Shown: in pieces, positions 1 to 14,554 of the stretch
Layout of the letters: every line of letters starts with the position of its first letter
Numbering within the stretch: position 1 is the stretch's first letter
DNA from: Armatimonadota bacterium
GTDB taxonomy: Bacteria > Armatimonadota > Armatimonadia > Armatimonadales > Armatimonadaceae
Reading direction: 5' to 3'
Assembly (NCBI GenBank): GCA_041192625.1
Contig: JBEEMN010000001.1
Coordinates: forward strand, 1-27,287
DNA length: 27,287 nt
The notes under the pieces: model-generated
What the model saw: only the letters and a program-made list of their open reading frames with translations
What the model was told of the DNA's origin: nothing
Database searches by the model: none
Program-made: the position numbers and the translations under genes

Positions 1-887
1 AGGCCCATCTTGCCGGAAAGCTTTCCGACATTGGTCTCATGTTGCTTCGAACGCCAGTCGGGTGTCACAACCGTCAGGAAGTATTCATCTTCAAGTGCTT
101 GGGTCATGACCTGCCCAAAGGATGAGCTGAGTGATGATGCAATCTGTGACTCTTGCTTATCGGCCACCAACGGAATGTACCAAAGGAGTGTTTCTAAGCC
201 GATTTCATCGTCGAAAGTTACATTCCCATTTGCATCGAAGAGACCGCCACCCTTTTGCAGGAGGATTGTCATCAGCTGGTCAACACCTGAGTCTGAAAAC
301 TCCGTGATGTACCGTTCACCGGGCTTTCTTACTTTCTTTCCCGCAGCGATAAAGCTGTCCCAAGTCGTAAGGTTTTCGGGTTTGAGCCCAAGCTCCGTAA
401 AAGCCTCCCGGTTGTAAGCAAGCATCACCGGATGAACATCGTGCGGCAGACCAAAAATACGGCCCTTATATGTGTAAGGAGTAAACCTCGCCCCGATGAT
501 GCGCTTATCGAGGCCTTCGGCCTTCAATGTATCGGTGATGTCCCAGAAGCCCACGTGTTCGACTGGTCCACGAAAGAAAGTCCCTGCGTTGCTGATCTCA
601 ATCTCGCAGACATCGGGGACATCGCCAGTCAATCCCGCCTGAAACGCGGCTTGCAGGCGCTGTGGAAGCCCCGTTCCGCTGACCAGCTGAACATCGATAA
701 CTTTGTCCGGATGCGCTTTTTGAAACTTGGGGAGTGCTTTGAGGTACGCATCGTAGTGCGTCGTCGAAAACGTCCAAAAGACAAGATCGGCCTTCTTGAC
801 GGTGCGATTTTGCGCTCCTAGCCAAATGCCGCTTGCGAGTGAAAGCGCGAGCATAAGTGCTGGCGCGGGTCCAAACGGAAATCTCAT
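1..887 (-). CDS. ABC transporter extracellular solute-binding protein, family 1 (sugar/oligosaccharide-binding); 3' end runs off the window
   Basis: Not in the ORF track (no stop in window). Manual translation from ATG at 887 is open to base 3: MRFPFGPAPALMLALSLASGIWLGAQNRTVKKADLVFWTFSTTHYDAYLKALPKFQKAHPDKVIDVQLVSG...VPDVCEIEIS...YKGRIFGLPHDVHPVMLAYNREAFTELGLKPENLTTWDSFIAAGKKV. It shows an N-terminal hydrophobic anchor, the 'L.FWTF' first strand, and the 'G..YGLP.D.....L.YN...F...G' and 'TWD.F..A' motifs of SBP_bac_1/8 proteins. ATG lies 1 nt after the upstream stop. Confidence 0.9.
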   Translation of the reverse strand, partial: MRFPFGPAPALMLALSLASGIWLGAQNRTVKKADLVFWTFSTTHYDAYLKALPKFQKAHPDKVIDVQLVSGTGLPQRLQAAFQAGLTGDVPDVCEIEISNAGTFFRGPVEHVGFWDITDTLKAEGLDKRIIGARFTPYTYKGRIFGLPHDVHPVMLAYNREAFTELGLKPENLTTWDSFIAAGKKVRKPGERYITEFSDSGVDQLMTILLQKGGGLFDANGNVTFDDEIGLETLLWYIPLVADKQESQIASSLSSSFGQVMTQALEDEYFLTVVTPDWRSKQHETNVGKLSGKMG

Positions 888-888
888 G

Positions 889-2091
889 TTAGCTACCTGG
901 CACGAATCTACCGGAATTGAGCCTGCCATCCGGGTCAAAAGCACTGCGAATTCCAGCATTCAAGTGGATGGCGCTGTCCGTAGCAGGAGGACCACACCAT
1001 GCAGCTGATCTGAGTTCAATCGGAGCTTCATCGATGAACCAGCTGGCTCCAAACAATGCACTACACTTGGCTACAGAATCGATTAGCTCGGCAGCATTAT
1101 CTGGAACGACAGGCCACGAGAATCCAATCCGGCCCGTCAGTGGAAGGATGGTGATAGTCCCACCTACCGCTAAAACACTTTCACGGAGCTTTGCGACAAT
1201 GTCAGCCGTCACCGATGGTAACGTCTGCAATCGAACGATGAGATTGCCTTCGATGGGATCTGGCAGATATTCGCCTTCAAAGGCTTGTGCAGATACATCT
1301 GTGCGGGCCGTGGTTGCCGCGCCGAACGCTGCAGCCGTGACAGCCTCGGTTGCGCCATGAAAGGTTATCGTCCCGTAGTCTGTGGCTTCCCCCGGTCTAC
1401 ACAGGATGACGGCCGACACGGGGTCCATCGCTGGCCTCAGATCAATCATCCAGCCAATCAGTTGCGATGCCGCTCCACTCGCAACGACACTTGCACGTGC
1501 CTCCGGCTTCGGCATCACACGGAAGGTCAGTTTTGTAAAGATGGCCAGCTGTCCGTTTGATCCCGTCAGAAGTTTCGGAAGATCGTAGCCAGTTACATTC
1601 TTGACAACGCGCCCACCGCCATGGATGAGGTTTCCAGCCATATCGACGGCTTCCACGCCAATCAATAGGTCGCGAACGGTGCCATAACCAGTGCTCAGGT
1701 AACCGGATGCCGCAGCTGCAACCATCCCACCGATTGTTGTCACAACAGGATAGGAAGGATCGATTGGCAGGTATTGATGATGCTCAGCAAGCATTACCTG
1801 AAGATCAATCAGGCGAGTCCCAGGTTTAACCGAGATCGTCATGTCATCGATGTCATGTTCGACCACTCCATTGAATGGCCGAAGATCGATGACGACAGGT
1901 GGCTTGGAGCAGGGCAACCCGGAAAGCTGTCCAGCTCCCCCGCCCCAAGGAACGACAGGATTGTCGTCGGCCTGAATGAGCGCTGCTTGCAGGCTTTCGA
2001 CCGAATCCACCTGAATGACGCGCACCGGCGCGTGTCCCAGTGCATCCTCCACATTTGACGGTGTCGGAACCAGTCCGTTCTCACGATTCAT
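889..2091 (-). CDS. FAD-binding oxidoreductase, VAO/PCMH family, GlcE (glycolate oxidase FAD subunit)-like
   Basis: Motifs PWGGG, 'DMTISVKPGTRL', 'TIGGMVAAAASG', 'YGTVRDLLIGVEAV..AG..IHGGGRVVKNVTGYDLPKLLTGSNGQL' and C-terminal 'FDPDGRLNSGRF' are typical of GlcE/GlcD-type FAD_binding_4 + FAD-oxidase_C proteins. The ATG overlaps the DUF1501 stop (TGATG). Confidence 0.85.
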   Translation of the reverse strand: MNRENGLVPTPSNVEDALGHAPVRVIQVDSVESLQAALIQADDNPVVPWGGGAGQLSGLPCSKPPVVIDLRPFNGVVEHDIDDMTISVKPGTRLIDLQVMLAEHHQYLPIDPSYPVVTTIGGMVAAAASGYLSTGYGTVRDLLIGVEAVDMAGNLIHGGGRVVKNVTGYDLPKLLTGSNGQLAIFTKLTFRVMPKPEARASVVASGAASQLIGWMIDLRPAMDPVSAVILCRPGEATDYGTITFHGATEAVTAAAFGAATTARTDVSAQAFEGEYLPDPIEGNLIVRLQTLPSVTADIVAKLRESVLAVGGTITILPLTGRIGFSWPVVPDNAAELIDSVAKCSALFGASWFIDEAPIELRSAAWCGPPATDSAIHLNAGIRSAFDPDGRLNSGRFVPGS

Positions 2092-3515
2092 CAGGCAATA
2101 ATCTTGTTTACAACTTCACCGTGCACATCGGTTAGACGATAGTCACGCCCTCCGTAACGGTACACAAGACGCGTATGATCGATGCCTAAAAGGTGCAACA
2201 TCGTTGCATGCAGGTCATGGAGGTGGACTTTATCCTCCTGAGCAAACCAGCCATAGTCATCCGTGTTTCCGTAAGTGATGCCACCCTTGACACCACCACC
2301 CGCCAGCCACATCGTGTAGCCATGCGGATTGTGGTCACGTCCATCCCCACCCTGTGCGGTTGGCGTCCGGCCGAACTCGCCGCCCCAGAGTACGAGGGTG
2401 TCTTCAAGCAATCCTCGCGACTTCAAGTCAGCCAGCAGGCCTGCGATCGGCAGGTCAACTTCGCGCGCATTCTTCTCATGATCATTTTTCAAGTTGCCGT
2501 GTTGGTCCCACTTGTACGAATGCGTCACCTGGACGAAGCGAACTCCAGCTTCACAGAAGCGCCTTGCCATGAGACATTGGCGACCGAAGTTGTCTGTAGG
2601 GTCATTTCCGATGCCGTACATATCGAGCGTCGCCTTGGACTCATTGGAAATGTCCATCAACTTTGGCGTCTCGGTCTGCATCCGGTAAGCAAGCTCAAAA
2701 GACTCAATACGTCCTTCGAGGTCAGGATCATGCCCAAAGTGAGCGAGCTGCTCTTTGTTCAGCCCTTGAAGAAGGTCAAGCTGCATCCGCTGCAGATTCC
2801 CCTTCAGTTCAGGGTTATCAATATGGCTGATTTTGGCATTCTTCGCACGAATCGAAGCGTTACCAATGGGTGTGCCCTGAGCATACGCCGGAAGAAAAGC
2901 ACTGGACCAGTTTTGCACGCCGCCATGCCCAAGCGTTGGACAGATGGTGATGAACCCCGGGAGGTTTTGGTTTTCCGTGCCAAGCCCATAGGTAAGCCAG
3001 CTGCCCATCGATGGCCGAACAAAGACATCGGAGCCCGTGTGCAACTTAAGCAACGCTCCGCCGTGCGCGGCATTCGACCCGTGAATACTCTTGATGACAC
3101 AAAGGTCATCGGCCATTTTGCCAACATTTGGGAAGAGATCGGAAACTTCAATGCCCGACTTACCGTAGCGTTTGAATTCCCATGGGCTCTTGAGGAGATT
3201 CCCAGTTTGCGCAAAGACGACACGAGGACGTGGCCCGGAGTATGGCTTTCCATGGTCACGCGTCAAGAGCGGCTTATGGTCGAAGGTGTCGACCTGACTT
3301 GGACCACCGTGCATGAAGACAAAGATAACCCGCTTTGCCTTTGGTTTGAAGTGCGGTGCTTTTGGCGCCAGTGGATTGATGTTCTTTGGCGGCGCAGCGA
3401 CGGCATTTGCGTGTAGCAGCCCTTGGAGAGCCAGGAGGCCAAATCCGCTAGCGGACTTATGGAGAAGCTCACGGCGCGATGTCACTGTTTCAAAACGATT
3501 ACATGATGTTGACAT
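2091..3515 (-). CDS. DUF1501 domain protein (alkaline phosphatase/sulfatase-like fold, Planctomycete-type) with twin-arginine-like N-terminus
   Basis: N-terminal SRRELL plus hydrophobic stretch; 'AKRVIFVFMHGGPSQVDTFDHKP', 'RPSMGSWLTYGLGTENQNLPGF', 'FGRQCLMARRFCEAGVRFVQV', 'WDQH', 'LEDTLVLWGGEFGRTP', 'GRDH', 'HDLHATMLHLLGIDH..L.YRY.GRD.RLTDV.G.VV'. RBS AGGAG overlaps the upstream TAG. Confidence 0.93.
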   Translation of the reverse strand: MSTSCNRFETVTSRRELLHKSASGFGLLALQGLLHANAVAAPPKNINPLAPKAPHFKPKAKRVIFVFMHGGPSQVDTFDHKPLLTRDHGKPYSGPRPRVVFAQTGNLLKSPWEFKRYGKSGIEVSDLFPNVGKMADDLCVIKSIHGSNAAHGGALLKLHTGSDVFVRPSMGSWLTYGLGTENQNLPGFITICPTLGHGGVQNWSSAFLPAYAQGTPIGNASIRAKNAKISHIDNPELKGNLQRMQLDLLQGLNKEQLAHFGHDPDLEGRIESFELAYRMQTETPKLMDISNESKATLDMYGIGNDPTDNFGRQCLMARRFCEAGVRFVQVTHSYKWDQHGNLKNDHEKNAREVDLPIAGLLADLKSRGLLEDTLVLWGGEFGRTPTAQGGDGRDHNPHGYTMWLAGGGVKGGITYGNTDDYGWFAQEDKVHLHDLHATMLHLLGIDHTRLVYRYGGRDYRLTDVHGEVVNKIIA

Positions 3516-3524
3516 GTGAGTCTC

Positions 3525-6329
3525 CTATTCCACGTAGGCAAAGCTATTTGATGCAAGCAATGCCTGACAATACACATCCCAAATACGCCGACGTCGCTCA
3601 GCGGGATCCGGTACAGCCTCTTCCAGCGTCAGCTCGTATGCAATGAAGAATCGTTGCGCAACTGCCTTTTCGGCATCGTTTTGTGGACGCCCAATGGCCT
3701 GATACGTGGCCGCATTCATGCGTTCATCTTCGGAAATGCCCGGAAGCGCGAGCATCCGTTGGGCAAACTTCCGGCTGAAATCAATCACCATTGGACTGTT
3801 CATCACGTAGAGCGCCTGCGGGGCAACTGTGGTTGGAGTCCTTGCGGCATTTACCATCGATGGATCACCAAAGTCGAAAGCCTGCAAGTAGTCGTAGACG
3901 GCGTTACGGATGACGGGGAGGTAAATACTCCGGCGTGGCGCATCGTAGCGTGCACCGTTTCCGGACTGGTCATTAGTGACATAGTCGCGATTGTTGGTAC
4001 CAAGGAACGTTCCCCCAAGGGTTTTATCGAGCTGTCCAGAGACAGCCAGCATCGCATCCCGGAGTGGCTCGGCATCCAGACGGCGACGGTTCGCCCGCCA
4101 CAGGAGCTGGTTTGCTGGATCGACAATCATTGGGTCTGCGACAAGACGCTTCTTCCCGCCAACAACTTCCATCGCCTTAGGTTTGACGCTGTACGCGACG
4201 CTGCTCTGCGCATAGGTGTCCGTGAGCATGAGGCGTTTGATGAAGCGCTTTACTGACCACTTATCATCAACGGCAAATGTAACCGCCAGCGTATCAAGAA
4301 GCTTTGGATTGGATGGCTTTTCACCACGGATTCCCCAGTTATCGGGGGTGCTTACGAGCCCAAGGCCAAACAAGTGGCGGAAGACCCGGTCCACCATGAC
4401 GCGGCTGGTCAACGGGTGGGATGATTTTGTCATCCACATCGCGAGCGACAACCGTCCACTCTTCTCAGGATCCGGCACAGGTGTGAAGTTTCCACCACAC
4501 AGCGCTGCGGGGAATCCGCGCGGTGCGACTTCACCAAGGGATTGCGTGTCACCGCGAACGTGAATCTTCACATCCTCAGGTTTCGCATCTTCAACCGCCA
4601 TTACAAAGACTGGCACAGGCTTCTTTGCAGCCGCACTTGCGAGATCCTTGTCAGCCTTTTCAGCAATGTTCTGAAGCGCTGCGACATCGGATGTGCCGAC
4701 AGGCAGCACCAAGTAACGGAAAAAGTGTGGAATCGGTCCACCGCGTGTAACACGGAGGAGGTTTTCGCCAGCATTCAGCTTGACGGTGCCAAGAACATCC
4801 CAAGCCTTACGGTCATCCCTGAACCCACCGGTATCACGTCCAGCGACGCCTGAGAGCTGCTTAGCCCCGTTGATAAAGATATCAACATTGCGGTTTTCAT
4901 TGCTGGCGTACTCGGATGCAAGCTTGTATTCACCTGTAGTCGGGACAGTGAGCTTGTACTCGATGTTCGCCGGGGAGCCTTCTGAGTTAATAGACCCGGG
5001 TCCGTAAGCATCCTTGGCAACATTTCCCTTGGTAAACGATGTTGCAGCAATAGCAGCGCCGCCGCTTGCCGTGAGTGCCTGCGTAACCGCTGCTCTTGCT
5101 TTGTCTGCTTTAGCACGCAGAGGGAGAAGGACATCGGATTCGTACTTGGCCGCTGATACCTTGGCATCCCCAGTCTCTACAGCACGTTCATTCCACGCGC
5201 TGACAAATCCGAGGTTTTCCATCGTTTTTGTCGACTTGAAAATACCCGCAAGTGCATAGTATTCCTTGGTCGAAATCGGGTCGAACTTGTGGTCATGGCA
5301 ACGCGCACATGCAATCGTCACGCCCATCACGGACTTTGAGACAACTTCGATCTGTTCATCCACGATGTCCATGACTAGCTTGGGCTTATCCTGCTCTGCA
5401 AGGACTTTGGGCCCGAGCGAGAGGTAACCGGTTGCGGTAAGCATGTCTGCCCGCTCAGCTTCGTTCCCTGGAGTTAGTAGGTCACCCGCAATCTGGTACT
5501 GAACAAAGCGATCGTATGGAAGGTCTTGATTGAGCGCATTTACAACCCAGTCACGGTAGCGGAACGCATTTCCGTGCGCAAGGTTTTCATCGAGGCCATT
5601 CGAATCTGCGTAGCGAGCAACATCCAGCCAGTGCCGCCCCCAGCGTTCACCGAATGCCGGGCTGGCCAGCAGCGTATCCACCACTTTACTGAAGGCATCT
5701 GGAGACTTGTCAGCCACAAATGCTTCCACATCCTTCGGTGCCGGGGGAAGACCGGTGATATCAAAGTAGGCTCGCCGTATCAACGTACGCTTGTCGGTAC
5801 GCGGAGCGGGTTTTAGACCGCTTGCTATAACCGGTGCACGGAGAAAGGCATCGATGTTCGTAGAAACCCCAGCGACCTTAGGTGCTGCGAAGCGCTTCGC
5901 AGGGATGAATGCCCAGTGGGTTGATGTCGAGCTGATGGCAGCAAGCGATTCGGGCCAGTGTGCGCCAGATGCGACCCAGCCTGTAAGGGCTGCGATCTCT
6001 GCCGCAGGAAGCTTGCCGGATGGCGGCATTTTATGCTTGCCTTCATAGCGGATCGCCTGTACCAGCGGGCTTGCGACTGCGTCACCTGGAAACACTGCCT
6101 TGACAGCACCTGCGGCGGTGTCGAGTCGCAGCCCACCAAGTGTTGTTTTTGAATTATGGCAAGGTACGCAGTGCTTGTGTAGGAGAGGGCGGATTCGTTT
6201 TTCGAAATCCAATTCCTCAGGACTGCCGACCTTAGCCGATGGAAGCTTTGCCTGCGGCGTGACCTGCCCAGCAACCACGGTCGATGCCACAGCGAAAATC
6301 CCCAAAATACCGAACAATGTACGATTCAA
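3525..6329 (-). CDS. Planctomycete-type cytochrome c protein: PSCyt1 + DUF1549 (PSCyt2) + CBM6/35-like insert + DUF1553 (PSD1)
   Basis: Signal peptide; CVPCH (6156-6170) and CARCHDHKFDP (5295-5309) heme-type motifs; DUF1549 motifs 'HWAF', 'LIRRAYFDITGLPP', 'FGERWGRHWLDVARYADSNG', 'YRDWVVNALNQDLPYDRFVQYQIAGD'; DUF1553 motifs 'GRLSLAMWMT...HPLTSRVMVDRVFRHLFGLGLVSTPDNWG..GEKPSNPKLLDTLA', 'RRRLDAEPLRDAMLAVSG', 'PQALYVMN'. TTG start with GGAG upstream. Confidence 0.92.
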   Translation of the reverse strand: MNRTLFGILGIFAVASTVVAGQVTPQAKLPSAKVGSPEELDFEKRIRPLLHKHCVPCHNSKTTLGGLRLDTAAGAVKAVFPGDAVASPLVQAIRYEGKHKMPPSGKLPAAEIAALTGWVASGAHWPESLAAISSTSTHWAFIPAKRFAAPKVAGVSTNIDAFLRAPVIASGLKPAPRTDKRTLIRRAYFDITGLPPAPKDVEAFVADKSPDAFSKVVDTLLASPAFGERWGRHWLDVARYADSNGLDENLAHGNAFRYRDWVVNALNQDLPYDRFVQYQIAGDLLTPGNEAERADMLTATGYLSLGPKVLAEQDKPKLVMDIVDEQIEVVSKSVMGVTIACARCHDHKFDPISTKEYYALAGIFKSTKTMENLGFVSAWNERAVETGDAKVSAAKYESDVLLPLRAKADKARAAVTQALTASGGAAIAATSFTKGNVAKDAYGPGSINSEGSPANIEYKLTVPTTGEYKLASEYASNENRNVDIFINGAKQLSGVAGRDTGGFRDDRKAWDVLGTVKLNAGENLLRVTRGGPIPHFFRYLVLPVGTSDVAALQNIAEKADKDLASAAAKKPVPVFVMAVEDAKPEDVKIHVRGDTQSLGEVAPRGFPAALCGGNFTPVPDPEKSGRLSLAMWMTKSSHPLTSRVMVDRVFRHLFGLGLVSTPDNWGIRGEKPSNPKLLDTLAVTFAVDDKWSVKRFIKRLMLTDTYAQSSVAYSVKPKAMEVVGGKKRLVADPMIVDPANQLLWRANRRRLDAEPLRDAMLAVSGQLDKTLGGTFLGTNNRDYVTNDQSGNGARYDAPRRSIYLPVIRNAVYDYLQAFDFGDPSMVNAARTPTTVAPQALYVMNSPMVIDFSRKFAQRMLALPGISEDERMNAATYQAIGRPQNDAEKAVAQRFFIAYELTLEEAVPDPAERRRRIWDVYCQALLASNSFAYVE

Positions 6330-6509: not shown

Positions 6510-6521
6510 CCAACCGGTTGG
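6510..6521. promoter_or_regulatory. Perfect 12-bp palindrome CCAACCGGTTGG; candidate transcription-factor operator
   Basis: Read directly in the divergent intergenic region 6330-6646; an extra CCAACC half-site lies at 6501-6506. The core fits the AANC-GNTT pattern of LacI-family operators. Confidence 0.45.
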
Positions 6522-6540: not shown

Positions 6541-6570
6541 TTGCTAATTCCACAAGTGCGCGATTATACT
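6541..6570 (+). promoter_or_regulatory. Putative sigma70-type promoter for the DUF1559 operon
   Basis: TTGCTA (6541-6546), 18-nt spacer, TATACT (6565-6570), 76 nt upstream of the ATG at 6647. Confidence 0.5.
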
Positions 6571-6646
6571 CCGATTGTTCATATTTAATTGAATGCGATG
6601 CACATCCAACGCAGGGTGTCATCCGCACTCTTAGAAGAGGTAATCC

Positions 6647-7504
6647 ATGCAGGGTACAAAGAGAGCGTTTACGCTCATCGAACTCCTCGTCGTTATTGCA
6701 ATTATTGCTATCTTGGCCGCGATTCTGTTCCCAGTCTTCGCACAGGCACGTGAAAAGGCCCGTCAAGCATCCTGTTTGTCAAACCTGAAGCAGCTCGGCC
6801 TCGGCATGATGATGTATGCCCAAGACTTTGACGAAGTCATGCCAACCGCATTCGTTGACTTCGGTGCTGGCATCAACGGTGGTGGTGTAGGTGTTGTTCC
6901 TTACGAGCACCAGCTGATGCCATACTTGAAGAATGACCAGATCTCCGGATGCCCATCCGACTCTGTCGCTCGCCCTGTACGTGGCTTGGGTGACTTTTTC
7001 GATGGCAACTACCAACGCCGTCGCCCTATGGTAAAGCGTTCTTACGGCTACGTTGGCCAGATCTGTACAGCAGAAGCAACCGCGCGCGGCCAATGGGATG
7101 ACCCAAACACCGGTATGTCCGCATGGGGCCAGGGCAAGTCCCTCGCTGCATTTGATGCACCAGCTGACACCATCTCCCTCGTTGAAGGATGGGGCCAAAA
7201 CGGTGGCGGCGAAGCAGAAACCTTCTACATCGGAACTCCTTGGGGCTCCCTGTTCACAGGTTGCGACACGTGGAAGCTTGCTGGACGTAACAAGCCAGCA
7301 CGGAACAACACTGACTTGGACGCATCCGGACAGTGCGCTGGTGACTTCAACGACAACGGCAAGCGGCCTGCTAAGGGTCACAGCGGTATGTCCAACTATG
7401 CATTCGCAGACGGCCACGTCAAGGCTCTGTCCTTCGGCGCTGTTCGTCAGAATGACTGGCGCTTGTTCAAGCTCGTCAAGCCACAGACCAACTACACCCC
7501 GTAG
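6647..7504 (+). CDS. DUF1559 (SBP_bac_10) family protein with prepilin-type N-terminal cleavage/methylation motif and C-terminal H-X9-DG motif
   Basis: KRA|[46 protein letters not shown]...MYAQDFDE; CPSD; C-terminal [15 protein letters not shown]; RBS AGAGG. Confidence 0.95.
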
Positions 7505-7512
7505 GTATAACT

Positions 7513-7797
7513 GTGCATATGAAGACTACGTTAGTTGCTCTAACACTCTGTAGCTTCGCTGTAGTAGCAGTTTCTGGCTGTAACAAGCCAGAAGCTGCTC
7601 CTCCAGCGCCAGCGCCGACAACACCTGCACCAGATGCATCATCGCAGGGGGGACAAATCCTCCGCCCTTCAGGTGCTATGGGTGGTGGACAACAAGGTGG
7701 TGGCCTGCCAGCAAGCATGACTGCGCCTCCACCAAATGCACCACCAAGTGTCCAACAGCAAATGCAAAGGATGAATGGTGGTTTTGGTAACCGCTAA
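7513..7797 (+). CDS. Small low-complexity (Pro/Gly/Gln/Ala-rich) lipoprotein, unknown function
   Basis: Basic-hydrophobic leader ending in lipobox VSGC; the mature part is PAPAP/GGGQQGGG-rich. It fills the gap between flanking genes with 8-nt and 3-nt spacers. The start could be GTG 7513 or ATG 7519. Confidence 0.8.
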   Translation: MHMKTTLVALTLCSFAVVAVSGCNKPEAAPPAPAPTTPAPDASSQGGQILRPSGAMGGGQQGGGLPASMTAPPPNAPPSVQQQMQRMNGGFGNR

Positions 7798-7800
7798 GTC

Positions 7801-9468
7801 ATGAAGAAACAGTCGAACCCGGCTTTGCTGGTTAAACGACTTACGATAACCGCCCTCGCTGGAACTGTTCTTGCCGGGGGCGGTTTCTATTTCGTAAGTC
7901 AAGCATACTCTGAAGCCACATTACGTGAGGCATATCTGCCAGAGCTGGAAGAAATGCTTCATAACGATCCAAACAATGGATCTTTGCTCGCGCTCACTGC
8001 TGGACGACATGCCGAGGCTGGAGACTTCGAAACTGCCGCCAAATACCTCGAACGTGCAGTCGCAGCCGGCGAATCCTCCTCCGACATCTGGATCACATGG
8101 TCCGCATCCCTTGCCGTCAGTGGAAACCGTGAACAATCCGGCCGTGTTCTCGCCCTCGCACGCTCGCGAGCTGAATCAAAAGCTGCTGCGATGGAAGCGA
8201 TTGAGCGTTGTAAACCCTTAACACCGGCATCCTTACCGCAAGAACTTGCACGTGCTATTGCACCGGATGGTCCCGCTAAGCTGATTGCAAGCCGTACACA
8301 AGGCTCCTTCCTAAACGGATGGTTTGCCTCACGCGCAGAATCGTCCCCTGAGACATCCGGGTACGCCACACGCCAGGCATGGTTCAAAGCAACACCGAAT
8401 GACCCGAATCGACGCATTCTTTGGGCTGAAGCCCTAATGAAAAATGGCAGGCATGTCGAAGCAGGGATGATTGCCGAAGATATTCTTGTTATAGACAAGA
8501 ACAACGTACGGGCCTGCCTGATCATGGCCGAAGCCCATCGCCTTCAAGGCGAGTTTGCCAAGTCTGGCCTTGAATACACCGAGCTGATCAAGAGAAATCC
8601 TAAGCTGATGCCTGCTTTGCTCGGCATGGGACAAGTCGCATTGGAGAAATCGCTGTTTCCAATTGCCCTCAAAGTCTACACCGATGCCACAGCGCTGGAA
8701 CCAGAAAACGCCACCGCTTGGGTCGGCCTTGGGCGCGCACACTATAACCAACGCCTGAACTTCGGGGCTGCAGTTGATGCTTTTGCACGCGCCAAGAAAC
8801 TCGACCCAAAGCGGACCGACTTTGCCATTTCTTACGCAAACGCGCTCCGCGCAATCTTCCGCTGGGATGAAGCAGAAGTGCTCCTAAAGGAGCGTCTTGC
8901 AGATATTCCAGATGACCCTGAAGCCCACTTTCAGCTCGCCACAGTCCTCCTAGACTCAAAACGCAATGCACAGCGTGAAGCAGAAGCCGAGCGCCTGCTT
9001 CGACGCTCACTTGAGCTGGAACCACGTGCAGTTGCCGCGATGGCACGCCTTGGGAGTCTCTTAGTCCAACATTCCAATGGTAAGGAAGCCATCCCCTACC
9101 TTGAAGCCGTTATCGCAGATGACATATTCCACGTTGCCGCCACAAAAGACCTTGCAACGGCATACCGACTCGCTGGCCGACTCAAGGAAGCCAAAAATGC
9201 GCAGGAGAGCTTTAGTCAGCTGACCATCTATATGGAAAAGCGTAACTTCCTTGATGACCTCCTCCGCCGCGAACCGATGAAACATGAGCTCCACGACAAG
9301 CTGGCTGCTCATCTTGAATCTGGTGGTGAGAACAACAAGGCCAAGCTTCACCGGGATGCCGCCATAATGCTTCGTAAAGACCCAAAGAAAGCAAAAATTG
9401 GCTTGCAGGCACTTAATGCAGCCCTTGCATCGACGGAAATCGTCAACGAATCGACCAAAAAAAGGTAG
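7801..9468 (+). CDS. Membrane-anchored tetratricopeptide-repeat protein
   Basis: N-terminal TM/signal (LTITALAGTVLAGGGFYFV) followed by repeated TPR-like units such as 'A..YLERAVAA', 'PENATAWVGLGRAHY', 'PDDPEAHFQLATVLL', 'LRRSLELEPRAVAAMARLGSLL'. Confidence 0.88.
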   Translation: MKKQSNPALLVKRLTITALAGTVLAGGGFYFVSQAYSEATLREAYLPELEEMLHNDPNNGSLLALTAGRHAEAGDFETAAKYLERAVAAGESSSDIWITWSASLAVSGNREQSGRVLALARSRAESKAAAMEAIERCKPLTPASLPQELARAIAPDGPAKLIASRTQGSFLNGWFASRAESSPETSGYATRQAWFKATPNDPNRRILWAEALMKNGRHVEAGMIAEDILVIDKNNVRACLIMAEAHRLQGEFAKSGLEYTELIKRNPKLMPALLGMGQVALEKSLFPIALKVYTDATALEPENATAWVGLGRAHYNQRLNFGAAVDAFARAKKLDPKRTDFAISYANALRAIFRWDEAEVLLKERLADIPDDPEAHFQLATVLLDSKRNAQREAEAERLLRRSLELEPRAVAAMARLGSLLVQHSNGKEAIPYLEAVIADDIFHVAATKDLATAYRLAGRLKEAKNAQESFSQLTIYMEKRNFLDDLLRREPMKHELHDKLAAHLESGGENNKAKLHRDAAIMLRKDPKKAKIGLQALNAALASTEIVNESTKKR

Positions 9469-9477
9469 GCTTTTAGC

Positions 9478-11145
9478 GTGAAGTTTAAAGTTCCACTTAC
9501 CGCCTCCATCTGCGTACTGGCTGCGGCTTCACTTGCTGGATGCAACACGAAAGCACCTGTAACGACAAATAACGGCCCCGCAGTGACATCGGATGTCCAG
9601 TTCGTCAATGTAACGGAACAATCTGGCATCGGCAGCTATGCCTGGACTCCACGCGAGAAGCGCCCTCTCACGATTCTTGGGACGATTGGCAATGGCGCAG
9701 CCTTCATCGATGTTGACAATGATAACAACCTCGACATCCTGCTGGTCGGAAAGAAGACCACCCTCTTCCGCGGTGATGGAAAAGGCAAGTTCACAGAAGA
9801 CCCAGCCGCCCTCGGTAATCCGCAAGGCTATTTCCTCGGCTGTGCCGTTGGCGACTATGACAATGATGGCTTTCAGGACATTTACCTGACCGGCTACCGT
9901 GATGGTCGTCTCTACAAGAACATGGGTGGCAAAAAGTTCACTGATGTCACCGCGGGCAGTGGGCTAACCAAACAACCTTGGGGAACGAGCGCCAGCTTTG
10001 CGGATTTCAACCGCGATGGCGTCCTCGATCTCTATGTCGCAAACTACGCTATTTTCGGCCCTAAAGTGATGCCGCAGCTGTGCTCGTTCAACGGGATTAT
10101 GTCCTCTTGCGGCCCCCGCTTCTACGACCCTGAGCGTGGGACACTTTTCCTTGCCAAAGCGCCAGGTAGCTTTGCCGATGTTTCCGTTGCAAGCGGTGCA
10201 AAGAAAGTCTCTGGCCGCGGCCTCGGTGTAGCCGTGCTCGACTTTGACTTCTCTGGACACGACAGCATTGCCATCGCAAACGATGAGCTTCCAGGCGATC
10301 TCCTCAAGAACACCGGGATGAAGTTCACAAACGAAGGCGCAAACTCCGGGACCGCCTACGATGGCGAAGGACGTGCACACGGCGGAATGGGCATTGATTG
10401 GGGTGACTACGACAACGATGGCAAACCAGACCTCGTCGTCGCAACCTTCAGCCATGAAGTCAAGTCCCTTTACCACAACGAAGGCGGCGGCTTCTTCATC
10501 GATAAATCCACCATGACCGGACTTTCGGATACCGTGCAGCCGTTCATCTCGTTTGGCATCAAGTTTTTCGATGCCAACAACGATGGCTTTATTGACCTTC
10601 TGTTATCGAATGGTCACGTTCAGGACAACATCGCGGATGTCGACAAGTCTTCCACGTACCCGCAGCCCATTTTCTTTATGCAAAACATGGCTGGACAACG
10701 CTTCGAAGACCGAAATGCCACCAGCGGTATCGGCAAGCTTAAACCAATCGTAGGTCGCGGCCTTACGGTTGGCGACTATGACAATGATGGCCTCGTGGAT
10801 GCCCTTGTCGTCGATAGCGAGGGCAAGCCAGTTTTATTGCATAACGAAACGAAAAGTGCTGGACACTACGTTCGCCTGACGCTTGTCGGGACAAAATCTC
10901 CTCGAAGCGGGCACGGGGCTTTGGTCCGAATTACGCTCGCTGATGGCAAGACACTTCTGCGTCACTGCCAGACCGATGGCTCGTACCTGAGCGCTTCCGA
11001 TGTTCGTGTTCACGTGGGTATTGGGTCTAACACCAGCGTCAAATCCGTCGAAGTCACATGGCCAAGTGGTACTAAGACGACACTAACCGATGTCCCGGTA
11101 GACAAGTCATCCACAATCACCGAAGGTGCATCCACGGTACGCTAG
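9478..11145 (+). CDS. CRTAC1 family protein (FG-GAP/VCBS beta-propeller + ASPIC/UnbV domain), lipoprotein
   Basis: Lipobox LAGC; seven DxDxDG-type loops (DVDNDNNLD, DYDNDGFQD, DFNRDGVLD, DFDFSGHDS, DYDNDGKPD, DANNDGFID, DYDNDGLVD); C-terminal 'GSYLSASDVRVHVGIG...SVEVTWPSG', typical of ASPIC/UnbV. GTG start. Confidence 0.92.
   Translation: MKFKVPLTASICVLAAASLAGCNTKAPVTTNNGPAVTSDVQFVNVTEQSGIGSYAWTPREKRPLTILGTIGNGAAFIDVDNDNNLDILLVGKKTTLFRGDGKGKFTEDPAALGNPQGYFLGCAVGDYDNDGFQDIYLTGYRDGRLYKNMGGKKFTDVTAGSGLTKQPWGTSASFADFNRDGVLDLYVANYAIFGPKVMPQLCSFNGIMSSCGPRFYDPERGTLFLAKAPGSFADVSVASGAKKVSGRGLGVAVLDFDFSGHDSIAIANDELPGDLLKNTGMKFTNEGANSGTAYDGEGRAHGGMGIDWGDYDNDGKPDLVVATFSHEVKSLYHNEGGGFFIDKSTMTGLSDTVQPFISFGIKFFDANNDGFIDLLLSNGHVQDNIADVDKSSTYPQPIFFMQNMAGQRFEDRNATSGIGKLKPIVGRGLTVGDYDNDGLVDALVVDSEGKPVLLHNETKSAGHYVRLTLVGTKSPRSGHGALVRITLADGKTLLRHCQTDGSYLSASDVRVHVGIGSNTSVKSVEVTWPSGTKTTLTDVPVDKSSTITEGASTVR
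9847..9870 (+). repeat. 24-bp exact direct repeat, copy 1 (copy 2 at 10768-10791), coding VGDYDNDG
   Basis: gttggcgactatgacaatgatggc read at both positions; these are two Ca-binding loops of the propeller. Confidence 0.85.
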
Positions 11146-11148
11146 CAT

Positions 11149-12972
11149 ATGCGTCCCGGATTACCGATGGCCCCTTCGAAAAAGGGGATGAACAAACAAA
11201 CAGTCAAGCGGGTTATTGCTCTTTTTTCAGAACACAGACCAACGCTGGCACTTATTGTCGTATTGGTACTGGCAAGTGCTGCGACTGGCATTCTCCCGCC
11301 CTATTACCTTCGGAAGATTGTGGATGAAGGATTCGGGCCACGAAACCTCGATGTCGTTACCCATTACACCCTCCTCACACTCGCAGCAACACTTGGCTCG
11401 ACAGCATTCAACCTCACTTACGGCTACCTCAGCGTTCTGCTTGGACAGCGCATCCTAAAGGACATCCGAAACCGTTTGTTCGAACACCTTCAAGGGATGG
11501 GCCTTAAGTTCTTTACATCCACGCGCACAGGTGAGATCCAAAGCCGCCTGATCGGTGATGTCGCAGGAGTTCAAGGCGTCCTGTCGGATACGCTCGCTAA
11601 CTTCCTCAGCAATGTCGCGATTGTTATCTCAACACTCATCGGAATGATTGCGATGGACTGGCGGCTTACCCTGCTGTCCGTTGGCATCCTCCCTGTGTTT
11701 GCCCTCATGTCTGCGCGCCTCGGTATCAAGCTGGGCGACCTACGAACGCAGTCCGCAAAGCAGAATGCTGATCTATCGAGCACGATGCAAGAGACGCTGT
11801 CCGTGAGCGGCATTTTGCTGCTGAAGACGACGGGCCAGTCTAAGCGGGCTCTTGACCGATTTGTCACTGAAAATGATGCTCTGACCGCAACCCAGATCCG
11901 CTCGATGTCGATTCTGCGGTTGTTCTTTAACTTGATTCCACTCACCTTTCAGCTCACGCCAGCTCTGGTGTATTGGCTTGCAGGCTACTTTATGGCCCAG
12001 CCGAGTGGCACTGGCCTGACCATTGGACTCATCGTCGCGTTCACCGCACTGCAATCGAGACTCTTCTTCCCACTGACATCCCTGATGAACATCCAAGTCG
12101 AAGTCATCAGCGGAATGTCCCTCTTCGACCGCGTGTATGAATACCTCGATATGGCACACGATATTCGGGAGGCTGAGCATCCAACCCCAGTTGACATCGC
12201 AACTGCAAAGGGCGAAGTATCCTTCACCGATGTCACCTTCAAGCACGATCCGGACTCCACTGATCTCACTCTGGACCATGTAACATTTACTGCAAAACCG
12301 GGAGAGCGTGTCGCCCTTGTTGGTGCGAGTGGCGCTGGCAAAACCACGATGGCCTTCCTTATTCCACGCCTTCATGACCCGCTCACGGGCTCTGTTTCCA
12401 TCGATGGCGTTGACATCAGAAACATCAGCTTTCAAAACCTCGGACGTTTGGTCGGCGTGGTTACACAGGAAACCTATCTCCTGCACGACACCATCAAGGA
12501 AAACCTCCGCTACGGCAATCCAGATGCAACAGATATGCAGATCGAAGATGCCTCTCGTGCAGCCGCAATCCACGAACATATCGCCGGCCTCCCAGATGGC
12601 TACAACACCATGGTTGGCGAACGCGGCTATAAGCTCTCCGGTGGTGAGAAGCAACGCCTCGCCATCGCACGGGCGATTCTCCAGAATCCAAAGGTCCTCG
12701 TCCTCGATGAGGCAACAAGCGCGCTCGATACACAAACGGAAGCCGCTGTTCAGGAGTCGCTGGCACGCCTTGCCGAAGGGCGTACGACATTCGCTATCGC
12801 GCATCGCCTGTCAACAGTCGTCGATGCAGACCGAATTCTCGTGATGGAACATGGACGGCTTGTCGAGCAAGGTACACATACCGAGCTCCTGGCAGCTGGT
12901 GGAAAATACGCCGAGCTCGTTGCAGCACAATGGGCGATCTCTGGTCCGGATTCCAACAGCGCCGGAGCATAG
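11149..12972 (+). CDS. ABC exporter, fused permease + ATP-binding domain (MsbA/MdlB-like type IV ABC)
   Basis: Six-TM N-terminal domain; Walker A GASGAGKTT, Q-loop VTQE, signature LSGGEKQR, Walker B VLVLDEATSALD, H-loop IAHRLST. The start may be ATG 11149 or a later ATG (MNKQ). Confidence 0.95.
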   Translation: MRPGLPMAPSKKGMNKQTVKRVIALFSEHRPTLALIVVLVLASAATGILPPYYLRKIVDEGFGPRNLDVVTHYTLLTLAATLGSTAFNLTYGYLSVLLGQRILKDIRNRLFEHLQGMGLKFFTSTRTGEIQSRLIGDVAGVQGVLSDTLANFLSNVAIVISTLIGMIAMDWRLTLLSVGILPVFALMSARLGIKLGDLRTQSAKQNADLSSTMQETLSVSGILLLKTTGQSKRALDRFVTENDALTATQIRSMSILRLFFNLIPLTFQLTPALVYWLAGYFMAQPSGTGLTIGLIVAFTALQSRLFFPLTSLMNIQVEVISGMSLFDRVYEYLDMAHDIREAEHPTPVDIATAKGEVSFTDVTFKHDPDSTDLTLDHVTFTAKPGERVALVGASGAGKTTMAFLIPRLHDPLTGSVSIDGVDIRNISFQNLGRLVGVVTQETYLLHDTIKENLRYGNPDATDMQIEDASRAAAIHEHIAGLPDGYNTMVGERGYKLSGGEKQRLAIARAILQNPKVLVLDEATSALDTQTEAAVQESLARLAEGRTTFAIAHRLSTVVDADRILVMEHGRLVEQGTHTELLAAGGKYAELVAAQWAISGPDSNSAGA

Positions 12973-12979
12973 GATCTCA

Positions 12980-14554
12980 ATGTCAAAGATTCGATTTGTG
13001 AATGCCATCGTCATTGATGGAAGTGGAAGCCCCGGGTTTGCGGCCGATGTCTACATCGACGATGACAGCATCACCGATGTCATTCCCCAACCAACCCTTA
13101 TCCCCGTCCGGGATGGCTACGAGGCGATTGCGTGTGGGGGCAAGGTTCTGTGTCCTGGCTTTATTGACATTCACACTCACTCTGACTTTAACGTCCTGAT
13201 CTTTCCCGGGATGGAGAGTTCCCTCTCCCAAGGCGTAACCAGTGAAGTCTTCGGTAACTGTGGGATTGCCATTGGTCTTGCGACTCCAGCGGAAGATTTT
13301 AAGCTCGAGCGCCGGGCTCTTGACCGCTACGGAGTCAAGCTGGACTGGACAGACCTGTCATCGTTCCTGACGCGCGTCGCAGATAATGGCACCGCTCTTA
13401 ATGTTGCATCCCTTGCCGGACACGGGACCCTCCGAAAACGTGTCATGGGAACCGCTAACCGGGCCCCAGATGTGGCTGAACTTAGTCAAATGTGCCGTGA
13501 TGCCGAAGCGTCAATGGCCGCGGGTGCCATCGGATTGTCCTCGGGCCTTGAGTACATCCCAGGAGCATACGCATCCATAGACGAGCTTTCTGCCATCGCA
13601 AAAGTCGTTGCTTCAGCAGGAGGCTTTTATGCAACGCATTTACGGGATGAAGGCGATCACCTCGAAGCAGCCGTTGAGGAAGCAATCAGCGTCGCCTCGA
13701 ACGCCGGGATATCGCTCCAGCTAAGTCATCACAAAGCGGAACTGCGACGGAATTGGACAGCGGTCCGGCGGACATTGGCCCGCGTTACGGAAGCGCAGGC
13801 AAACGGAATCGACATCCACATTGACCAGTACCCATACACGGCGTACCAGACCAGCCTACAAACCATCGTCCTCCCCCGCTGGGCAAATGCTGCAGACTCA
13901 GAAGCCTTGGCGGAGCTGATCAACACACCGGGAAATCGGGAACGCATCCACGCCGAAATGTCGCACCACGATTGGTCACGGCTCAAGATTGCAACGTGCG
14001 CAACGCATCCAGACTACATCGGGATGTCTCTAGAAACGCTGGCTGTGAACACTGGTCAACATCCACAGGACTTTGTTCTGGACCTCCTTGCGACACCGGG
14101 TCCATGGATTTCAGCTGTGCACCATGCGATGTCAGATGAAGATGTCGAGTATGTCCTTCAGGATCCACGTGTGATGATTGGATCTGACTCAGTCGCAACT
14201 GATATCACCCACCACGGAAGCAGCGAGCAACCGCATCCTCGAACATTTGGGACATTCGCGAGAATACTCGGGCACTACGTTCGGGAAAAGAAGGTCATCG
14301 GGCTCGAGGAGGCTATTCGCAAAATGACAAGCCTACCTGCATCGCGGCTTGGCTGGCATAACCGCGGGCGTATCGGAGCTGGCTTCAAAGCGGATATTGT
14401 CCTCTTGGACCCGGAAACCGTCGGCTCACCGGCGACCTTTGAACAGCCACGGCAGCGTGCAACAGGTATCAGCCAGGTATGGGTTAATGGAACACTCGCA
14501 CATGATGGCGGGAGACCTACCGGATCTCGAAGTGGGCAGGTCTACCGCAAGTAG
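12980..14554 (+). CDS. N-acyl-D-amino-acid deacylase (D-aminoacylase), amidohydrolase superfamily
   Basis: 'IVIDGSG', 'PGFIDIHTHSD' (HxH), 'GNCG' (metal Cys), 'GLSSGLEYIPG', 'THLRDEG', 'SHHK', 'DQYPY', 'MIGSDS', 'HPRTFGTFARILG', 'EAIRKMTSLPA', 'G..ADIVL'. Start moved from the track's 12851 to ATG 12980 (MSKIRF), which has an AGGA RBS and no overlap with the ABC gene. Confidence 0.9.
   Translation: MSKIRFVNAIVIDGSGSPGFAADVYIDDDSITDVIPQPTLIPVRDGYEAIACGGKVLCPGFIDIHTHSDFNVLIFPGMESSLSQGVTSEVFGNCGIAIGLATPAEDFKLERRALDRYGVKLDWTDLSSFLTRVADNGTALNVASLAGHGTLRKRVMGTANRAPDVAELSQMCRDAEASMAAGAIGLSSGLEYIPGAYASIDELSAIAKVVASAGGFYATHLRDEGDHLEAAVEEAISVASNAGISLQLSHHKAELRRNWTAVRRTLARVTEAQANGIDIHIDQYPYTAYQTSLQTIVLPRWANAADSEALAELINTPGNRERIHAEMSHHDWSRLKIATCATHPDYIGMSLETLAVNTGQHPQDFVLDLLATPGPWISAVHHAMSDEDVEYVLQDPRVMIGSDSVATDITHHGSSEQPHPRTFGTFARILGHYVREKKVIGLEEAIRKMTSLPASRLGWHNRGRIGAGFKADIVLLDPETVGSPATFEQPRQRATGISQVWVNGTLAHDGGRPTGSRSGQVYRK

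Follow-up and report, generated by a model that had tools for sequence, protein, structure and literature searches.

We describe a block of four consecutive genes in a 27,287-nt stretch of DNA from an Armatimonadota bacterium (GenBank assembly GCA_041192625.1, contig JBEEMN010000001.1, positions 1 to 27,287; hereafter the window). The genes encode, in this order, a pilin-like DUF1559 protein, a small lipoprotein, a tetratricopeptide repeat (TPR) protein and a CRTAC1-family lipoprotein, and they very probably represent a genuine, conserved, multi-copy cassette of the cell envelope. An earlier note on this DNA had proposed the block as an undescribed module, and we found no description of such a cassette in the literature on DUF1559, UnbV/ASPIC, H-X9-DG or the pilins of Armatimonadetes. 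New here are the split form of TPR and CRTAC1 in a second phylum, the co-divergence of these two proteins, the link to LacI-family regulators and the replacement by TonB-type barrels. The window is contig 1 of a metagenome-assembled genome (MAG) of 2.29 Mb in 469 contigs, which is 68% complete, and near-identical DNA was found in freshwater and lake metagenomes of many studies.

Layout and recurrence of the cassette

The four genes lie on the + strand: ORF1 at 6647-7504 (285 aa), ORF2 at 7513-7797 (94 aa), ORF3 at 7801-9468 (555 aa) and ORF4 at 9478-11145 (555 aa). They belong to a series of six co-oriented ORFs located 3' of a divergent control region of 317 nt, the sixth of which is an amidohydrolase gene that ends at 14554, and the gaps from ORF1 to ORF5 are 8, 3, 9 and 3 nt. 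Pfam matches, combined with a reading of motifs and hydropathy, placed an export signal on all four products. The four genes lead a single, densely packed operon. When the sequence was re-read, the ORFs, the gaps of 8, 3 and 9 nt, the prepilin leader, the two lipoboxes, the transmembrane TPR protein and the FG-GAP/UnbV_ASPIC propeller were all as the earlier note had described them. The note had also closed the block at 11145; its four genes (6647-11145) stand, but its end does not, because an ABC exporter gene begins 3 nt further on.

For comparison, we mapped 60 loci around CRTAC1 homologues in 40 Chthonomonadales genomes, using a home-made ORF caller and hidden Markov models (HMMs) built from the MAG's own paralogues. 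Recurrence of the four gene types, on which the earlier note had staked its proposal in advance, was observed within the MAG, in Chthonomonadales and in other Armatimonadota families. The MAG has at least 8 UnbV_ASPIC genes. Its contig C381 carries DUF1559, TPR and CRTAC1 genes in this order, contig C109 carries a DUF1559 gene followed by a TPR gene, convergent with CRTAC1, and on contigs C375 and C39 a CRTAC1 gene is followed by a TPR gene. Among the Chthonomonadales CRTAC1 genes, 49/78 had a TPR gene within two genes and 48/78 had a DUF1559 gene within three genes. About 30 of these 78 loci were colinear, with DUF1559 followed by a small ORF, where present, and then by TPR and CRTAC1.

In five near-complete relatives, a DUF1559 gene was located no more than 4 kb from CRTAC1 in 32 of 38 cases, compared with 5.4 expected from the DUF1559 background of these genomes (37-128 matches per genome of 4.5-6.3 Mb). 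The cassette order was present in 8-13 paralogous copies per genome. Further, the same order was detected at 15-18 of the 31 CRTAC1 genes of four further Armatimonadota families and at two LacPavin Armatimonadota loci, and it is found in at least five Armatimonadota families.

Outside this phylum, five loci in two Planctomycetota genomes showed a DUF1559 gene followed by genes for a lipoprotein of about 150 aa and for a lipoprotein of about 1000 aa with TPR, FG-GAP and UnbV_ASPIC domains. These modules have the same protein classes in the same order as the window. However, TPR and CRTAC1 form the single lipoprotein of about 1000 aa in Planctomycetota, whereas they are split in the window, where the ABC exporter gene comes next. 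Moreover, the small lipoprotein of Planctomycetota is weakly similar to CarboxypepD_reg (22-28 bits in loci L169, L171 and L181; cut-off 32.3) rather than disordered and P/G-rich. Note that CarboxypepD_reg also heads the TonB-type barrels located beside TPR-CRTAC1 in Acidobacteriota.

The four cassette proteins

ORF4 encodes a CRTAC1-family lipoprotein with the lipobox LAGC (Cys22), a seven-bladed FG-GAP propeller with predicted Ca2+ sites and a C-terminal UnbV_ASPIC domain. It matched PF13517 FG-GAP_3 with 120.1 bits and PF07593 UnbV_ASPIC with 64.8 bits, and five of its seven blade motifs were strict Dx[DN]x[DN]G. The best solved match to its AF2 model (pLDDT 88.7) was murine CRTAC1 (9etn; sequence E 5.3e-11, fold E 2.8e-29, TM-score 0.70), followed by aldos-2-ulose dehydratase, the GlcNAc lectins PVL and AAL2, and integrin alpha. 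As judged from its sequence, ORF4 is a member of the CRTAC1 family. It shares with vertebrate CRTAC1 (ASPIC) and with bacterial ASPIC/UnbV proteins the integrin-like seven-bladed FG-GAP propeller, Dx[DN]xDG sites and UnbV_ASPIC, and the similarity in fold to 9etn extends over the full length. Unlike vertebrate CRTAC1, to which it is 18% identical, it has a lipid anchor and is not a secreted matrix protein, and its TPR partner is a separate protein, not fused to it. The TPR and CRTAC1 proteins of Acidobacteriota have ordinary Sec or Tat-like signals. In the Acidobacteriota loci L085, L088 and L093, some CRTAC1 homologues have N-terminal signals that resemble the twin-arginine type, such as SRRDLLQGVGAVLAAP and TRRRFLQSAGAAGF. 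Such signals would imply folding before export and may hint at a bound cofactor or metal.

ORF3 encodes a membrane-tethered TPR protein, in which Pfam TPR matches and hydropathy indicated a transmembrane segment at about residues 14-36 and a predicted TPR solenoid on the outer side of the membrane. Its scores against NCBIfam equivalogs were below the cut-offs (PrsT, 65.7 vs 312; PilW, 29.5 vs 154; Tgl, 22.6 vs 225), and its apparent likeness to PrsT, PilW/PilF and Tgl is generic TPR similarity only. The SusD families of Pfam gave no match to ORF3. The earlier note had stated that TPR and ASPIC/UnbV domains are fused elsewhere and split here, and we found fused TPR-CRTAC1 forms in three lineages, namely the Chthonomonadales family f2, Acidobacteriota and Planctomycetota. 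BLASTP of ORF3 against the TPR part of the fused Chthonomonadales and Planctomycetota proteins revealed generic repeat similarity only (E ≥ 0.01).

The pairwise distances of the TPR and CRTAC1 proteins were correlated across 38 cassettes (Spearman 0.53), and the correlation persisted when the set was thinned to the 22 cassettes with CRTAC1 identity below 60% (0.56, p 0.0005). The distances of DUF1559, whether the whole protein or its head, were also significantly correlated with those of TPR and CRTAC1 in all 38 cassettes (rho 0.24-0.31), but after close orthologues were thinned to 22 cassettes, rho was about 0.06 (p about 0.3). We therefore rejected DUF1559 co-divergence as evidence of a specific partnership. 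The median identity among cassettes was 40% for CRTAC1, 19% for TPR and 22% for the DUF1559 head. We read these data as suggesting that TPR-CRTAC1 is a unit that duplicates and evolves jointly, and that DUF1559 is tied to it by position and strand but is swapped more freely. The earlier note had assigned specificity to a variable pilin head. The head is variable, but it does not co-diverge with TPR or CRTAC1, and the idea that it recognizes this particular propeller is accordingly weakened. Complex prediction for CRTAC1 (residues 24-555) and the DUF1559 head (residues 36-285) gave a score of 0.00, which counts neither for nor against binding.

ORF1 encodes a pilin-like DUF1559/H-X9-DG protein with the class III (prepilin) signal A/FTLIE. 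Its leader, MQGTKRA/FTLIELLVV with Glu at +5, scored above the cut-offs of PF07963 N_methyl (31.4 bits) and TIGR02532 (32 bits), and hydropathy peaked at residue 13 (3.24). The match to PF07596 DUF1559 (55.8 bits; cut-off 23.3) covered only profile positions 2-62 of 268; a DUF1559 member of one Planctomycetota cassette matched PF07596 over its full length with 173 bits. The H-X9-DG motif was read directly as H245, D255 and G256, all three of which are conserved in 67 relatives, and the score against TIGR04294 (18.3) was just below the cut-off of 19. We assigned ORF1 on these features to the predicted class III signal proteins and to DUF1559.

The AF2 model of ORF1 (pLDDT 72 overall, 50-85 in the head) consists of a helix at residues 10-60 and a small alpha/beta head with a few short strands. 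No solved relative of the head was found, as Foldseek against the PDB aligned the pilin N-terminal helix alone (E ≥ 0.26). The neighbors of the model in AFDB were proteins named DUF1559 or GspG. Some of them are longer chains, automatically named as GntR/LutR regulators or as related to O-antigen ligase, in which the pilin-like domain is C-terminal; there it would be unprocessed and outward-facing.

The MAG contains at least 28 DUF1559 genes. The 14-residue mature N-terminus is identical in 27/28 of their products, residue -1 is Ala in 19 and Gly in 9, and the helix is near-invariant to about residue 49, with variable heads beyond it. A function of DUF1559 as a mere membrane anchor is disfavored because this helix is invariant. 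ORF1 resembles type IV pilins and type II pseudopilins (PilA, GspG; Geobacter PilA-N 9egp/7tgg; Thermus PilA4 6xxd) in its class III signal, Phe+1, Glu+5 and hydrophobic alpha1. Unlike them, it has a head of about 225 aa that lacks a solved relative and bears an H-X9-DG motif. Further differences from pilins are the dozens of DUF1559 paralogues per genome with an invariant helix, the residue -1 that is mostly Ala and not Gly, and the position of the DUF1559 gene outside pil/gsp clusters, at the head of operons for exported proteins. On MAG contigs C54, C93, C95, C148, C420 and C118 (loci L157-L167), further DUF1559 genes are located upstream of exported-protein genes, which encode PQQ_2/BamB-like propellers (three in a row on C54), GH30, a polysaccharide deacetylase lipoprotein, a phosphodiesterase or a TPR protein. 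An exported ORF of 70-125 aa often intervenes. The PF07596 profile found no match in three non-Armatimonadota genomes reached via loci L127, L132 and L136.

No paralogous family of model planctomycetes is larger than DUF1559, which has 68 copies in Planctopirus, two of them essential (PMC10632474). In Fimbriimonas, 79 PulG-like genes were counted in the genome paper, which does not comment on their gene context (PMC4072686). The papers found to mention DUF1559 all treat it as a paralogous family of unknown function.

ORF2 encodes a small lipoprotein with the lipobox VSGC (Cys23) and a mature part of 71 aa rich in P, G, A and Q. It had no family match in Pfam or NCBIfam, and it ends in the conserved C-terminal motif N-x-P-P..QQQMQRMNGG. 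Lipoproteins of 64-112 aa with a lipobox, a P/A/G-rich linker and an N-P-N-I-P...Q..M-G-G-type tail were encoded just before or just after TPR, next to DUF1559 or CRTAC1, respectively, in about 16/56 pairs of DUF1559 with downstream TPR/CRTAC1. The small lipoprotein, which the earlier note had counted as a part of the module, is thus found in the same slot elsewhere, but with this frequency it is an optional accessory. A DUF1559 paralogue on MAG contig C381 (L009:2193-3092, - strand), in which H-X9-DG was not recognizable, ends in the small-lipoprotein tail ...PPKKMTMPGAAPADPKNIDPSMKEDMRKQMGR, and the orthologous locus L050 has a separate gene for a 64-aa lipoprotein. The C381 tail is either a natural DUF1559-lipoprotein fusion that links both proteins or an assembly artefact.

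Control region, neighboring genes and machinery in trans

Within the divergent control region, a perfect 12-bp palindrome, CCAACCGGTTGG, was read at 6510-6521. It is a candidate locus-specific operator and is closely preceded by an additional CCAACC half-site. The palindrome is present at the same place in three same-genus genomes (L015, L056 and L058) and occurs three times in the whole MAG. As none was located upstream of the other 27 DUF1559 paralogues of the MAG, we ruled it out as a shared DUF1559 regulon motif. A consensus scan detected a promoter-like TTGCTA-18-TATACT on the + strand at 6541-6570, a weak match (9/12) located 77 nt 5' of the DUF1559 start codon. One contig from an RNA library starts at 6599, where it adjoins adapter sequence, and gives a hint only.

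Contigs of metatranscriptome libraries from four studies covered the block. Three runs had contigs across the DUF1559/lipoprotein/TPR junctions, one run across the TPR/CRTAC1 junction, and four runs from four studies across the CRTAC1/ABC junction. Contig depth was 136-357 for DUF1559 and 3-8 for CRTAC1. In three runs from three studies it was 20-357 over positions 6600-8200 (from DUF1559 through ORF2 into the 5' part of TPR) and 0-8 further downstream. Note that DNA carry-over is possible in such libraries, and that contig depth is not a sound measure of expression and is unreliable for ranking genes. Contig depth hints that DUF1559 is the most strongly expressed gene of the block, and its drop may reflect a strong promoter together with attenuation within the TPR gene.

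Downstream of ORF4, the + strand gene at 11149-12972 encodes an MsbA-like ABC exporter (fused permease and ATPase, 607 aa) with Pfam and NCBIfam matches below all equivalog cut-offs. It is followed on the same strand by the PRK09061-like amidohydrolase gene, whose start is likely near 12980, not 12851. Synteny of the exporter gene was kept in the same-genus loci L015, L056 and L058 and not in more distant cassettes; that of the amidohydrolase gene was likewise limited to the genus, and both were dropped as cassette members. On the other side of the control region, a divergent operon on the - strand (1-6329) encodes a PSCyt1/DUF1549/DUF1553 protein (934 aa), a DUF1501 protein (474 aa), a FAD_binding_4 oxidoreductase and a SBP_bac_1 solute-binding protein. 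The 934-aa PSD1 gene is upstream of the cassette in the window and in L015, the sole same-genus locus that shows this region.

The earlier note had expected pilus-type machinery to be encoded elsewhere in the genome, and such genes were found. MAG contig C50 encodes a T2SSF (PilC/GspF) protein (223 bits) followed by a PilD-like protein of 479 aa, which matched A24_N_bact with 108.5 bits and Peptidase_A24 weakly (23.1; cut-off 26.5). At least three GspE/PilB-class and PilT-class ATPases are encoded in the MAG. The MAG thus has the PilD-like peptidase, PilC/GspF and PilB/GspE of type IV pilin systems. No secretin was found in the MAG, whose 68% completeness bars inferring absence; the relatives have 3-6 secretins each and many GspE-type ATPases.

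Functional context and proposed role

LacI-family regulators accounted for 5 or 6 of the 29 genes that flank canonical cassettes, and among the LacI-like genes of the Armatimonadota loci, 13/16 were directly upstream of a DUF1559 gene. A same-strand LacI gene was located 5' of DUF1559 in L016, L047, L062, L067, L072, L078, L196, L199, L200 and others. In the loci of Acidobacteriota, Latescibacterota and Poribacteria, TPR was followed by CRTAC1 at 63/115 CRTAC1 genes, with 10 further fused cases, and no DUF1559 gene was found in them. Instead, a protein of 1100-1280 aa with CarboxypepD_reg and an OMP_b-brl_4/TonB-dependent-receptor barrel was encoded within three genes at 29/115 as a raw count, and all eight of the cases checked (8/8) were confirmed by Pfam. 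At least two Acidobacteriota loci have the order LacI, barrel, TPR and CRTAC1. In contrast, no TonB-type barrel was located within three genes of a Chthonomonadales CRTAC1 gene (0/78), and the Plug domain gave 0-3 weak matches per Chthonomonadales genome.

Two known systems resemble the cassette. As in the operons of minor pilins with PilY1/PilC (fimU-pilVWXY1E, Pseudomonas and Neisseria), a pilin-like gene is co-encoded with a Ca2+-type beta-propeller, and the analogy would be a propeller carried or controlled by a fibre. However, PilY1 (PF05567) had no Pfam match at E ≤ 0.01 in the four cassette proteins; the cassette's propeller is a lipoprotein of the FG-GAP/CRTAC1 type, a single pilin-like gene stands in place of four or five, a TPR partner is present and the copies are many. 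With SusC/SusD polysaccharide utilization loci the cassette shares many paralogous copies, a lipoprotein binder with an all-helical repeat partner and LacI at the head of many copies, and in Acidobacteriota the parallel extends to the TonB-type barrel beside TPR-CRTAC1. Unlike these loci, the 78 Chthonomonadales cassettes have no TonB-dependent transporter, SusD is not matched, this cassette has no glycoside hydrolase, and a pilin-like protein stands in the transporter's place. We concluded that the cassette falls outside the definitions of a PilY1 operon, of a SusC/SusD locus and of the named TPR lipoproteins (PrsT, PilW, Tgl). We regard it as a protein of the type IV filament type that is encoded together with an accessory unit.

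From this genomic context, we tentatively favor a sugar-regulated module for capture or handling at the envelope, in which a pilin-like protein takes the place that a TonB-dependent transporter has in other phyla. The cassette would capture or handle an extracellular, probably glycan, substrate at the envelope under sugar regulation. The propeller would bind, and possibly modify, the ligand, and the TPR protein would be its fixed partner and keep it at the membrane. DUF1559 would be cleaved between Ala and Phe of A/FTLIE and then built into or onto a short fibre by a type IV pilus or type II secretion-like machinery. This fibre would link the propeller unit to transport through the outer layers, the step of the TonB-dependent transporter in Acidobacteriota, and the small lipoprotein would serve as an additional tether that docks on a partner through its conserved tail. 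Adhesion or capture on a pseudopilus, as proposed in the earlier note, remains conjectural, and the LacI regulators, the TonB-type barrels of Acidobacteriota and the glycan-enzyme neighbors of other DUF1559 genes favor substrate handling over pure adhesion. The sugar dehydratase and GlcNAc lectins that follow CRTAC1 among the nearest folds of the propeller also fit this reading.

Several points weigh against this reading or the evidence on which it draws. The window locus has no LacI gene, and its neighbors are the PSCyt/DUF1501 operon and the ABC exporter. The apparent enrichment of barrels near TPR-CRTAC1 is a raw count. DUF1559 may head operons in a generic way instead of being a specific partner. 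The distinction between split and fused forms rests on architecture, because the TPR parts share no specific similarity. The gene maps depend on the home-made ORF caller and HMMs. Finally, the binomial P values for proximity of DUF1559 to CRTAC1 (≤ 1e-4 in each genome) are overstated, since paralogues and orthologues are not independent; the effect size is unaffected.

It is possible, though we consider it unlikely, that DUF1559 paralogues are adaptors for secretion or display, that is, cargo-matched pseudopilins of a type II secretion-like machine that help to export the downstream exoproteins or expose them at the surface, here CRTAC1 with the TPR protein as chaperone or dock. Pullulanase PulA is an example of a lipoprotein exported by type II secretion, and the tip of the pseudopilus contacts cargo. 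The unrelated exported proteins encoded after DUF1559 genes in the MAG (PQQ propellers, GH30, deacetylase, phosphodiesterase, TPR), the combination of variable heads with an invariant helix, which would fit a shared machine with differing cargo, and the secretins and GspE-type ATPases of the relatives are consistent with such adaptors. However, a cargo-matched protein should co-diverge with its cargo, which DUF1559 does not, and no type II system is known to have dozens of cargo-specific pseudopilins. Further, the far higher contig depth of DUF1559, albeit unreliable, would be more typical of an abundant structural subunit than of a minor adaptor.

We give less credence to a tip adhesin, in which the propeller and TPR protein on a DUF1559 fibre would attach to surfaces or prey polymers in the manner of PilY1 and would not take part in uptake. 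Operons of minor pilins with PilY1 likewise combine a pilin-like gene with a Ca2+-binding beta-propeller, and the fold of the propeller is nearest to CRTAC1, integrin alpha and lectins. Fimbriimonas ginsengisoli, with its PulG-like genes, has fimbriae and is non-motile (PMC4072686), which also speaks for adhesion. Nevertheless, Pfam detected no PilY1 domain, and CRTAC1 and TPR have membrane anchors of their own, which a tip-borne adhesin would not need. The LacI regulators and the parallel with the TonB-type barrel suggest nutrient handling, and 8-13 copies per genome would be many for adhesins, though not impossible.

A periplasmic complex that forms no filament is more doubtful still. DUF1559 would then stay in the inner membrane as a pilin-anchored binder or sensor beside the transmembrane TPR protein and the propeller. 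Both TPR and DUF1559 are anchored via N-terminal helices, and the Sec or Tat-like signals of the Acidobacteriota proteins suggest that these are periplasmic. The AFDB chains in which the domain is C-terminal to a GntR/LutR-type helix-turn-helix would act as outward sensors rather than processed pilins, but their names are automatic. On the other hand, the shared 14-residue N-terminus of 27/28 paralogues and their near-invariant helix suggest a common peptidase, platform or filament core, whereas a simple anchor would be expected to drift. Lastly, a meaningless adjacency of two abundant paralogous families, by chance or hitch-hiking, would fit the 37-128 DUF1559 matches per genome, the presence of only about one tenth of DUF1559 genes near CRTAC1 and the head that does not co-diverge with its neighbors, but it is hardly credible given 32/38 observed against 5.4 expected, an order and strand kept in at least five Armatimonadota families and, with TPR-CRTAC1 fused, in Planctomycetota, the gaps of 3-9 nt and the RNA-library contigs that bridge the junctions.

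Sugar-regulated capture or handling with a pilin-like protein in the transporter's place therefore stays our preferred, tentative reading. A wider proposition, to which we assign a rather low probability, is that Armatimonadota and Planctomycetota run a TonB-independent nutrient capture coupled to pilin-like fibres as a counterpart of polysaccharide utilization loci, in which DUF1559 paralogues with invariant helices and variable heads lead sugar-regulated operons of binders or enzymes, TPR-CRTAC1 among them. They would jointly replace the TonB-dependent transporter that acts at the outer membrane next to this pair in Acidobacteriota. The cassette gives DUF1559 and bacterial CRTAC1/ASPIC-UnbV, two large families of unknown function, a reproducible genomic context. 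Further, both families become experimentally approachable through their ties to sugar-type regulators and through the link to TonB-dependent transporters that the substitution provides. If a pilin-like protein indeed replaces the transporter, this would explain polymer uptake in phyla poor in TonB-dependent transporters.

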